Below, one piece after another: positions 9,600 to 23,915 of a stretch of DNA of 32,000 nucleotides. Position numbers and translations under genes: made by a program. The stretch's first letter is position 1, and every line of letters starts with the position of its first letter. Below the pieces are notes generated by a model. The model was given only the letters and a program-made list of their open reading frames with translations. It was not told the origin of the DNA and searched no databases. Origin of the DNA: Candidatus Jordarchaeales archaeon (GTDB taxonomy: Archaea > Asgardarchaeota > Jordiarchaeia > Jordiarchaeales > Freyrarchaeaceae); contig JAWAHN010000001.1 of assembly GCA_038889235.1 (NCBI GenBank), forward strand, positions 1,064,499 to 1,096,498, written 5' to 3'.

Positions 9600-9613
9600 G
9601 AAAGAATTTAAAT
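9600..9613 (+). promoter_or_regulatory. BRE/TATA promoter of tRNA-Arg
   Basis: GAAAGA-ATTTAAAT; implies a transcription start near 9634-9638. Confidence 0.65.
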
Positions 9614-9659
9614 CCCCTCACTGCTCTACTCATATGTAGGCGGGTCGTTAGGGTCTGTA

Positions 9660-9678
9660 ACCCTGTAAAGGGGGATAA
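9660..9678 (+). other. tRNA-Arg intron 1, position 9/10 (or 8/9), 19 nt
   Basis: ACCCTGTAAAGGGGGATAA must be removed to join the acceptor stem to the D-stem. It contains a CCCT-GTAA-AGGG hairpin but no local BHB central helix. Confidence 0.75.
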
Positions 9679-9708
9679 GCTCAGCTTGGATAGAGCGCCG
9701 GCCTTCGG

Positions 9709-9724
9709 AGCTTATCCCGGAGAA
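9709..9724 (+). other. tRNA-Arg intron 2, canonical 37/38, 16 nt
   Basis: BHB: central helix CTTC/GGAG, bulges GG|A and AA|A. Confidence 0.9.
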
Positions 9725-9746
9725 AGCCGGAGGTCGAGGGTTCAAA

Positions 9747-9768
9747 TCCTATGGAAAAAGGGTGGAAA
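9747..9768 (+). other. tRNA-Arg intron 3, position 59/60, 22 nt
   Basis: BHB: T-stem as outer helix, central helix TTCA/TGGA, bulges AA|T and AA|T, inner helix CCT/GGG. Confidence 0.88.
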
Positions 9769-9868
9769 TCCCTCCAGACCCGCCACATTATCTCCCTCTT
9801 TATTCAGGTAATCTTCAACTCTATTTCTCACCTCTACCCTCCTTAACATGTGATACCATTAGCCAGAA

Positions 9869-23822: not shown

Positions 23823-23915
23823 GGGCCCCTAGCTCAGCCTGGTAGAGCTTAGAGCGCTAAAAGCACCCGGTTTGCACCCGGGAGGCCGCGGGTTCAAATC
23901 CCGCGGGGTCCACCA
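23823..23915 (+). tRNA. tRNA-Ala(UGC) with a D-arm intron and encoded CCA
   Basis: Mature GGGCCCC TA GCTC AGCCTGGTA GAGC A CCCGG TTTGCAC CCGGG AGGCC GCGGG TTCAAAT CCCGC GGGGTCC A CCA; G3.U70 Ala determinant present. Confidence 0.93.
23846..23861 (+). other. tRNA-Ala intron, position 22/23, 16 nt
   Basis: AGCTTAGAGCGCTAAA; BHB with central helix TGGT/GCTA, bulges AG|A and AA|A, inner helix GCT/AGC. Confidence 0.82.

Follow-up and report, generated by a model that had tools for sequence, protein, structure and literature searches.

The tRNA-Arg(UCG) locus and its conservation

The DNA analyzed here (hereafter, the window) is a stretch of 32,000 nucleotides (nt) from a Candidatus Jordarchaeales archaeon (NCBI GenBank assembly GCA_038889235.1, contig JAWAHN010000001.1, positions 1,064,499 to 1,096,498 of the forward strand), and it carries at positions 9651-9785 on the plus strand a gene for the transfer RNA (tRNA) with the arginine anticodon UCG, tRNA-Arg(UCG). 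The gene is interrupted by three introns and is preceded by a short leader containing a degenerate copy of the first exon. Exon 1 (9651-9659; GGGTCTGTA, tRNA positions 1-9), in which GGGTCTG forms a 7-bp acceptor stem with 9775-9781 and is followed by TA, is separated by intron 1 (9660-9678, 19 nt; position 9/10 or, equivalently, 8/9) from exon 2 (9679-9708, 30 nt, positions 10-37), which comprises the D arm with A20 and the anticodon stem and loop up to G37, including the anticodon TCG at 9705-9707. Intron 2 (9709-9724, 16 nt) occupies the canonical position 37/38 and is followed by exon 3 (9725-9746, 22 nt, positions 38-59), intron 3 (9747-9768, 22 nt) at 59/60 in the T loop, and exon 4 (9769-9785, 17 nt, positions 60-76), namely the rest of the T arm, the acceptor 3' strand CAGACCC, G73, and an encoded CCA. 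Upstream on the same strand lie a promoter element resembling a B recognition element and a TATA box (BRE/TATA; GAAAGAA TTTAAAT, 9600-9613) and the 5' leader (9639-9650), which consists of GGC and the copy of exon 1.

When 9660-9678, 9709-9724, and 9747-9768 were removed from the DNA, ARAGORN called a 78-nt tRNA-Arg(tcg) with a score of 124.1 and a perfect cloverleaf. This confirms a preliminary description of the locus, in which three insertions of 19, 16, and 22 nt had been proposed. The same three excisions gave a perfect tRNA-Arg(UCG) cloverleaf with ARAGORN in all four species compared, namely the window species and three other genomes of the same genus. The spliced tRNA has a perfect 7-bp acceptor stem, A20, G73, the encoded CCA, and, in all four species, a 7-nt anticodon loop with UCG at positions 34-36. 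The arginine identity set of A20, C35, G36, and a purine at position 73 is established for bacterial arginyl-tRNA synthetase and is assumed for archaea; all of these nucleotides are present here, A20 being in the D loop AGCTTGGATA, C35 and G36 in the anticodon, and G73 next to the CCA. Without splicing, in contrast, 9651-9785 gave no ARAGORN call even with the intron option included, and the Rfam tRNA model matched only a core (9678-9752) with 23 bits as compared with the gathering score of 29 bits. The expectation that standard tRNA finders would miss this gene therefore holds for ARAGORN on the unspliced DNA and for Rfam.

The preliminary description had also taken the gene for a live one with an intact promoter, and both claims agree with an alignment of the four species. 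Orthologues in the other three species (about 81% identity) retain all three inserts, and their exons are almost invariant; indeed, 73 of the 78 exon columns are identical in the four species (9/9, 26/30, 21/22, and 17/17 in exons 1 to 4), as against about 10% in the intergenic flanks (2/20 in the DNA upstream of the promoter, 2/23 in the stretch from TATA to the leader, and 4/33 in the trailer). Two of the five variable exon columns form the D-stem pair 12-23, which covaries, being T-A in the window and C-G in the other three species, and 13 of the 14 columns are invariant in the BRE/TATA-like element. The introns (14/19, 7/16, and 8/22 columns invariant in introns 1, 2, and 3, respectively) vary in their loops and lengths, intron 2 measuring 16, 16, 15, and 15 nt and intron 3 measuring 22, 18, 15, and 18 nt in the four species. 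Judged from this pattern of conservation, the locus is a tRNA-Arg(UCG) gene under selection and neither a product of decay nor an artefact.

The insert at 9660-9678, in particular, had been named as a possible assembly error, which is not borne out. Two DNA assemblies from different studies contain the stretch (word shares of 1.00 and 0.99), the one that was aligned being identical to it, and the DNA of the window may itself stem from both. Furthermore, a third study has an RNA library, a sediment metatranscriptome (run X4), in which a contig (266 nt, depth of 4) carries the inserts in unspliced form. This contig spans 9655-9834, with tRNA position 5 at one end and a point 49 nt beyond the CCA at the other, where unrelated sequence takes over; its differences from the window are confined to introns 2 and 3 and the trailer. 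It represents a related strain. The contig may derive from either precursor RNA or DNA carry-over. Given that the inserts are present in three other species, in the DNA assemblies, and in the RNA-library contig of a third study, an assembly artefact is excluded. Another RNA-library run had no contig for the gene, and the raw metatranscriptome of the source study gave 0 reads for it in the approximately 3% of the data that were read. Taken together, we regard 9651-9785 as very probably a real tRNA gene whose transcript is spliced.

Archaea decode CGA with a UCG anticodon, and CGA is in use in this genome at 2.7 per 1000 codons (942 long open reading frames). A second tRNA-Arg(UCG) gene was found neither by BLAST of the gene against the genome, nor by a scan for anticodon arms, nor by genome-wide removal of one to three introns with splice motifs followed by ARAGORN (hereafter, splice-and-scan), in a genome that is 95% complete and with genes carrying several relaxed motifs being invisible to the search. 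These searches returned only the present locus, a tRNA-Arg(CCG) paralogue, and false positives. The present copy thus stands as the only tRNA-Arg(UCG) gene found by three types of search, a point that the preliminary description had marked for checking, within a splice-and-scan census that is noisy and incomplete for relaxed motifs and hence does not prove the absence of a second UCG gene. A regular expression for anticodon arms was discarded as far too loose, and two other "tcg" loci of the splice-and-scan were rejected, one being a tRNA-Ala(GGC) gene with G3:U70 and the other a coding region with Gly/Ala repeats. The tRNA-Ala(GGC) gene (C1:695148-695286, minus strand, outside the window) has introns at 33/34, 53/54, and 59/60, the 33/34 intron having a perfect splice motif with a CCUCC/GGAGG hairpin, and it was mis-called as Pro, Arg, or Ala by splice-and-scan with ARAGORN. 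The repeat region (C2:298780-299020, plus strand) is a GC-rich, Gly/Ala-rich coding stretch (GGTGCTGCTGGCGGCGCC...) that produced thousands of false tRNA calls.

Three introns in one tRNA gene are ordinary for this lineage, as is evident from published multi-intron tRNA genes and from the length of the approximately 40 tRNA-like genes of this genome, which measure 90-210 nt. The host is a hot-spring Asgard archaeon of an order that also holds Freyarchaeia. A 1158-aa protein compared for taxonomic placement had just 51% identity to a Methanosuratincola MAG and was uninformative. In Freyarchaeia and Atabeyarchaeia lineages, introns are present in 92-95% of the tRNA genes, more than half of the genes having several (Valentin-Alvarado et al. 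2024, PMC11291895), while 2.0-2.4 intervening sequences per gene, and up to five in a single gene, are given for Jordiarchaeaceae and Freyrarchaeaceae in a preprint (10.64898/2026.10.13.758758). The frame of reference chosen in the preliminary description, Thermoproteales and Thermofilales, is accordingly not the appropriate one, the host being an Asgard archaeon from a lineage with published multi-intron tRNAs.

Splice motifs of the three introns

In another archaeal phylum, tRNA introns excised by proteins have bulge-helix-bulge (BHB) or relaxed motifs and are located at many positions, up to three in a gene and including one in the acceptor stem at 3/4, according to a review (PMC4090602). 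We scanned for BHB motifs at the homologous columns of all four orthologues and found that introns 2 and 3 have a strict canonical BHB, in every species, at boundaries that give the right product. In intron 2, CUUC (C32-C35) is paired with GGAG and flanked by 3-nt bulges, the anticodon stem serving as a 5-bp outer helix; in one species (G001), the intron strand reads GGGG with the pairing kept. Intron 3 has the full arrangement of outer, central, and inner helices (hBHBh'), namely UUCA/UGGA with the bulges AA|U between the T stem as outer helix and CCU/GGG as inner helix, and again the pairing is kept in a species with a UGAA strand (G003). AAATCC occurs at both borders of the third insert, and its placement is ambiguous from sequence alone; based upon the BHB motif, however, intron 3 is placed at 9747-9768, i.e., Sprinzl position 59/60, so that the earlier assignment was right in the length of 22 nt and had to be corrected in position. 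Position 59/60 is a known site of archaeal tRNA introns (PMC4090602). Both 37/38 and 59/60 are also occupied in tRNA-Arg(TCG) of Freyarchaeia, which indicates that introns 2 and 3 are older than the genus. Intron 1, in contrast, is a gain at the level of the genus.

For intron 1, no strict BHB yielding the correct product was found in the four species. All four of them keep a relaxed BHB, in which the central helix is formed by G3U4C5U6 paired with GGAU (9673-9676), the outer helix by G1G2 (plus G-1 in three species) paired with C11Y12(C13), and the inner helix by CCC paired with GGG, with a 5' bulge of 4 nt (G7 U8 A9 | R) and a 3' bulge of 3 nt (A A | G10). The helix and bulge positions of this motif are invariant, and its hairpin loop varies. 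A motif of this quality appeared in 0.57% of shuffled inserts, as compared with 25% for a bare 4-bp central helix. An A stands at both borders of the first insert, and excisions at 8/9 and 9/10 give the same product and are indistinguishable by sequence; the intron position of 9/10 originally proposed is thus allowed, with 8/9 as its equivalent, while the relaxed nature of the BHB had been missed.

A strict register for intron 1, with 3-nt bulges on both sides, would excise 9659-9678 (20 nt), drop A9, and leave a single connector nucleotide. The D stem begins at position 10 in the approximately 40 tRNA-like genes of this genome, except for 2-3 entries that are probably not tRNAs. Since the strict register gives the wrong connector, one of the two cuts at intron 1 would be 1 nt off the canonical geometry. 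Among those tRNA-like genes, furthermore, no other gene with an insert at the acceptor/D junction was found. The motif of intron 1 borrows the acceptor nucleotides 1-6, and the signal for its splicing therefore competes with the 7-bp acceptor stem. We consider it likely that intron 1 is spliced via the relaxed BHB; it appears to behave like a BHB intron, though with a relaxed and not a strict motif.

Motifs spanning different introns were rejected, namely the 5' site of intron 1 combined with the 3' site of intron 3 and a BHB between the leader and exon 1 (9647-9659); both can be drawn but would give nonsense products. As for the processing enzymes, the genome has two PF01974 genes for splicing endonuclease (111 and 77 bits), the RtcB ligase (600 bits), and the RNase P RNA (150 bits). 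A PF01974 splicing-endonuclease gene lies at C1:1056473-1056727 (plus strand), about 8 kb before the start of the window and near a tRNA-rich region; several tRNA genes are located between C1:1043299 and C1:1090535. The other PF01974 gene is at C3:444309.

A conserved copy of exon 1 in the leader

The preliminary description was right in the structure of the gene and overlooked a conserved copy of exon 1 in its leader. From the usual archaeal TATA spacing, transcription would start near 9636-9640, the BRE/TATA-like element being 32 nt before a conserved GGC. From 9639, the leader reads GGC followed by GGGTCGTTA and then by exon 1 GGGTCTGTA; in other words, GGC precedes a degenerate copy of exon 1 that stands in tandem with it. 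The front of the leader (GGCGGGT, 9639-9645) is part of the run TAGGCGGGT, which is invariant in 9/9 columns of the four species, while the rest of the copy, a spacer, is invariant in 1/6 columns. Moreover, the first 8 nt of the leader, GGCGGGTC, are the exact complement of GACCCGCC (9777-9784), i.e., acceptor positions 68-72 and G73 C74 C75, so that GGCGGGT(Y) of the leader can be partnered with (R)ACCCGCC of the tRNA 3' end. Indeed, minimum-free-energy folds pair the leader with the tRNA 3' end in 4/4 species, and the helix of 8 Watson-Crick base pairs ranks first among 38 tRNA-like genes in the genome, with 5 in the runner-up. Pairing of a leader to N73-C74-C75 was also considered as a general feature of the genome and turned out not to be general. 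In a sister genus (G004), the Arg gene has GGC or GC directly before GGGTCTG, as does the tRNA-Arg(CCG) paralogue of the present genome (C1:487191-487347, minus strand), and both of these genes have a D-loop intron instead of intron 1.

Other interpretations of the leader were tried and rejected. Taking the upstream GGCGGGT as the true acceptor strand (a register of +3) strands CAG between the T and acceptor stems and gives no valid tRNA, and a splice-and-scan model that starts at 9642 with 35 nt removed, including the D arm, had a defective D arm and a score of only 101.4. A fourth intron was also looked for by hand in the 9-10 nt that separate the two GGGT copies; no BHB was found there in any register, and this spacer varies in both length and sequence. 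Tandem Repeats Finder and a scan for sigma-70 promoters and terminators gave no match, as expected from the copies being only 9 nt long and the promoter being archaeal.

A second case in Freyarchaeia

Matches to the gene in three genomes (G021, G031, and G006) coincide with the published tRNA-Arg(TCG) coordinates of Atabeyarchaeia-1, Atabeyarchaeia-2, and Freyarchaeia, respectively, the last of these (G006) belonging to the same order as the window genome, which is thereby identified as Asgard. The published table for Freyarchaeia (Supplementary Data 4, PMC11291895) includes a tRNA-Thr(CGT) gene with an intron starting at gene nucleotide 9, i.e., at 8/9, and a clean tRNA-Thr(cgt) was obtained when the published intron coordinates were applied to the Freyarchaeia genome (sequence L031). 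Like intron 1 of tRNA-Arg(UCG), this intron is right after the acceptor stem and draws its central helix from acceptor nucleotides 3-6 and its outer helix from nucleotides 1-2 and the D stem. Its motif is a canonical hBHBh' (G1C2/G10C11 outside, C3-G6/CGAG in the center, and CCUC/GAGG inside) with the bulges [G7 U8 | N] and [A N | A9]. The two cases differ in that the tRNA and the family are not the same and in that the Freyarchaeia intron has canonical 3-nt bulges with A9 supplied by the 3' exon, whereas tRNA-Arg(UCG) has a 4-nt 5' bulge and a register shifted by one.

The Freyarchaeia tRNA-Thr(CGT) gene also has a comparable leader, GGA-GCCTTCGGT-GA, before exon 1 GCCTCGGT; that is, GGN plus a near-copy of exon 1. 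This leader can pair with positions 66-75 of the tRNA, and its pairing with the 3' end ranks first among 36 annotated tRNA genes. All of its 14 nt are identical in six genomes, while the promoter-proximal DNA has diverged. The chance of the top rank in both genomes would be about 1/38 x 1/36, for two independent lineages only. The counterparts that have no junction intron also have no leader copy, namely tRNA-Arg(UCG) of Freyarchaeia and of the sister genus (G004) and tRNA-Thr(CGT) of the present genome (C1:662213-662327, minus strand). The leader copy thus goes with the junction intron in two unrelated tRNA genes.

A possible role of the leader and alternative explanations

To compare the conformers, constrained folds at 37 °C were evaluated with nearest-neighbour energies, a positive value meaning that the splice-competent conformer is disfavoured relative to the acceptor conformer. 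For tRNA-Arg(UCG) in the four species, the difference was +9.5 to +15.5 kcal/mol without the leader and -2.6 to +0.6 kcal/mol with it; for tRNA-Thr(CGT) in the six genomes, the corresponding values were +4.9 to +9.8 and -2.9 to -7.1 kcal/mol. These models suggest that the leader offsets a penalty of 5-15 kcal/mol on the splice-competent fold, and we somewhat favour the view that the leader serves as a decoy for the acceptor 3' strand. A primary transcript would extend from about 9639 to near 9785, and its leader would pair with the 3' strand of the tRNA, standing in for the real 5' strand during the removal of intron 1. Acceptor nucleotides 1-6 would thereby be freed, nucleotides 3-6 for pairing with GGAU of the intron and nucleotides 1-2 for pairing with 11-12 of the D stem. 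EndA, with its two paralogues, would excise the three introns, RtcB would ligate the exons, the true acceptor stem would form after splicing, and RNase P would trim the 12-nt leader. For this explanation as a whole, i.e., a single-copy functional tRNA-Arg(UCG) gene with intron 1 removed via a relaxed BHB and with a decoy leader, our estimate of the probability is roughly 0.6. The structure of the gene, its conservation, the motifs, the presence of the enzymes, and the association of the leader copy with the junction intron are shown; the start of transcription, the occurrence of splicing and its precise cut sites, and the function as a decoy are inferred.

Several points weigh against this explanation. 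A strict BHB is lacking in intron 1, the central helix of which holds two G-U pairs and is backed by no compensatory change, as the exon side never varies. The sole RNA-library contig over the gene is unspliced, and the portion of raw metatranscriptome reads mentioned above contains none from the gene. Furthermore, the nearest-neighbour model favours the helix of the leader over the cloverleaf even after splicing, so that the energies are silent on a later displacement of the leader; models of this kind ignore the tertiary structure of tRNA. Conservation at the transcription start may contribute to the invariance of the leader, and just two independent gene lineages were examined.

The gene might instead be functional and spliced with its leader copy being a relic, namely the original exon 1 stranded after a local duplication or insertion had created a new exon 1 together with the intron; the copy would then be kept for its overlap with the transcription start or for another role such as protection of the 3' end. 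The upstream GGGT lies at the same distance from TATA as tRNA position 1 in the sister genus, which makes it a plausible ancestral 5' end. Decay is seen in the 3' half of the copy, the spacer having 1/6 columns invariant, and the preference of the folds for the leader helix after splicing could make the leader a burden rather than a help. Against a relic stand nine consecutive invariant columns amid DNA conserved at about 10% and a whole 14-nt Freyarchaeia leader invariant in six genomes, and the part retained is exactly the one complementary to the 3' end. Also, the two tRNA genes with the copy are unrelated and have nothing but the junction intron in common, and their counterparts without that intron lack the copy. 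We therefore consider the relic doubtful and prefer a decoy function of the leader.

With regard to intron 1 itself, a cut at the strict BHB with 3 nt in each bulge would take out 9659-9678 and leave one nucleotide to connect the acceptor and D stems, the junction reading GGGTCTGT-GCTC instead of the GGGTCTGTA-GCTCAGC produced by splicing at 9/10 (or 8/9). All four species do have a 4-bp GUCU/GGAU helix with 3-nt bulges (G7 U8 | A and A A | G10) and 2-3 bp of outer helix, and the geometry is that of the 8/9 intron in Freyarchaeia tRNA-Thr(CGT). There is, nonetheless, no inner helix in this register, and the product would be devoid of position 9, at odds with the D stem starting two nucleotides after the acceptor stem in the other tRNA-like genes, the few doubtful entries aside. 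In Freyarchaeia, moreover, it is the 3' exon that supplies A9, an option not open to the sequence here, and the strict cut is improbable. Even less credible is a reading in which the mature RNA keeps the 19-nt insert as an additional hairpin or in which the locus is a decaying pseudogene. Such a reading would be in line with the only RNA-library contig being unspliced, with no spliced RNA observed, and with intron 1 lacking a canonical BHB. Against it stand the strong purifying selection on the exons in four species, the compensatory change in the D stem, and the status of the gene as the only UCG decoder found in a genome that uses CGA codons. The conserved GGAUAA tail extends beyond the hairpin and suits a splice motif, not a simple extra arm, and extra nucleotides at 9/10 would, from the established structure of tRNA, disrupt the core of the molecule. 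Retention and pseudogenization are thus very improbable, and splicing of intron 1 via the relaxed BHB remains our preferred reading.

Other tRNA loci

Some other loci were noticed in the course of this analysis. At 23823-23915 of the window (plus strand), ARAGORN called a tRNA-Leu(taa) with the acceptor GGGCCCC/GGGGTCC, G3:U70, and A73. Beyond a 16-nt insert behind the D stem (TTAGAGCGCTAAAAGC), the anticodon loop reads TT TGC AC, and this locus is most likely a tRNA-Ala(UGC) gene with a non-canonical intron near 25/26. Its twin at C1:481105-481197 reads CGC and would be tRNA-Ala(CGC). Outside the window, a candidate for tRNA-Phe(GAA) at C1:758710-758860 (plus strand) reached an ARAGORN score of 113 after BHB removals of 16, 17, and 17 nt and of a 25-nt intron in the anticodon loop, and it may be a gene with four introns. 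An intron-less tRNA-Arg(CCG) gene was found at C6:391-468 (plus strand; ARAGORN score of 125.6), whereas other tRNA genes of the genome are interrupted. Contig C6 (5.7 kb) has a G+C content of 0.416, as compared with 0.47-0.51 for the large contigs C1-C3, and is probably foreign DNA, either a contaminant or a mobile element.

Relation to known systems and significance

The gene described here resembles the intron-rich tRNA genes of Asgard archaea (PMC11291895; 10.64898/2026.10.13.758758) in having several BHB-type introns, some at non-canonical positions, in being partly missed by standard tools, and in having introns at 37/38 and 59/60 in common with tRNA-Arg(TCG) of Freyarchaeia. Those papers report counts and positions, and in the parts accessible to us neither an acceptor/D-junction intron nor a copy of exon 1 in the leader is discussed. 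The multi-intron state is already published for this lineage, and the junction intron is present in a published table, where, as far as the available text goes, it is left without discussion. In the preliminary description, the junction position was not counted among the known sites. This is correct insofar as 8/9 and 9/10 are not among the positions listed in the text consulted of the review on archaeal tRNA introns (PMC4090602), which concerns a different phylum and describes no helper leader there; given 8/9 in the table for Freyarchaeia tRNA-Thr(CGT), however, the position is rare and not new.

A parallel to the leader might be sought in the split and permuted tRNAs of Nanoarchaeum equitans, Caldivirga, and Thermofilum (PMC4090602 and PMC3218864), in which sequences outside the mature tRNA likewise pair to give a shape usable by the endonuclease. 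In those systems, the extra sequences pair together and form the BHB itself, whereas here the leader would pair with the 3' acceptor strand and stay outside the BHB; also, its removal would be carried out by RNase P and not by EndA. Our literature search turned up no account of an acceptor-strand copy in the leader that accompanies introns near the acceptor stem. In our assessment, 9651-9785 is a real and essential tRNA gene with an ordinary number of introns, and its notable features are the relaxed junction intron and a leader copy that is conserved, gene-specific, and recurrent.

For annotation, the only CGA decoder found in this genome is missed by ARAGORN and Rfam, and automated tRNA counts of Asgard genomes of this kind will wrongly report a missing isoacceptor. 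As a generalization, which we put forward tentatively and at slightly less than even odds, archaeal introns close to the acceptor stem (3/4 to about 10/11) may depend on a folding helper in cis, namely a leader that is a tandem duplicate of exon 1, sequesters the 3' acceptor strand, and is discarded by RNase P. The rule suggested here, unpublished as far as we found, is that a substitute strand in the leader allows an intron to live beside the acceptor stem. If this is true, such leaders would constitute an undescribed class of pre-tRNA processing element, explaining how introns can exist in a region otherwise unable to present a splice motif, and a copy of exon 1 in the leader would serve as a signature for hidden acceptor-proximal introns. 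A cis-acting RNA chaperone would then be added to the maturation of archaeal tRNA, and models for the gain of BHB introns in the archaeal relatives of eukaryotes would be constrained accordingly.

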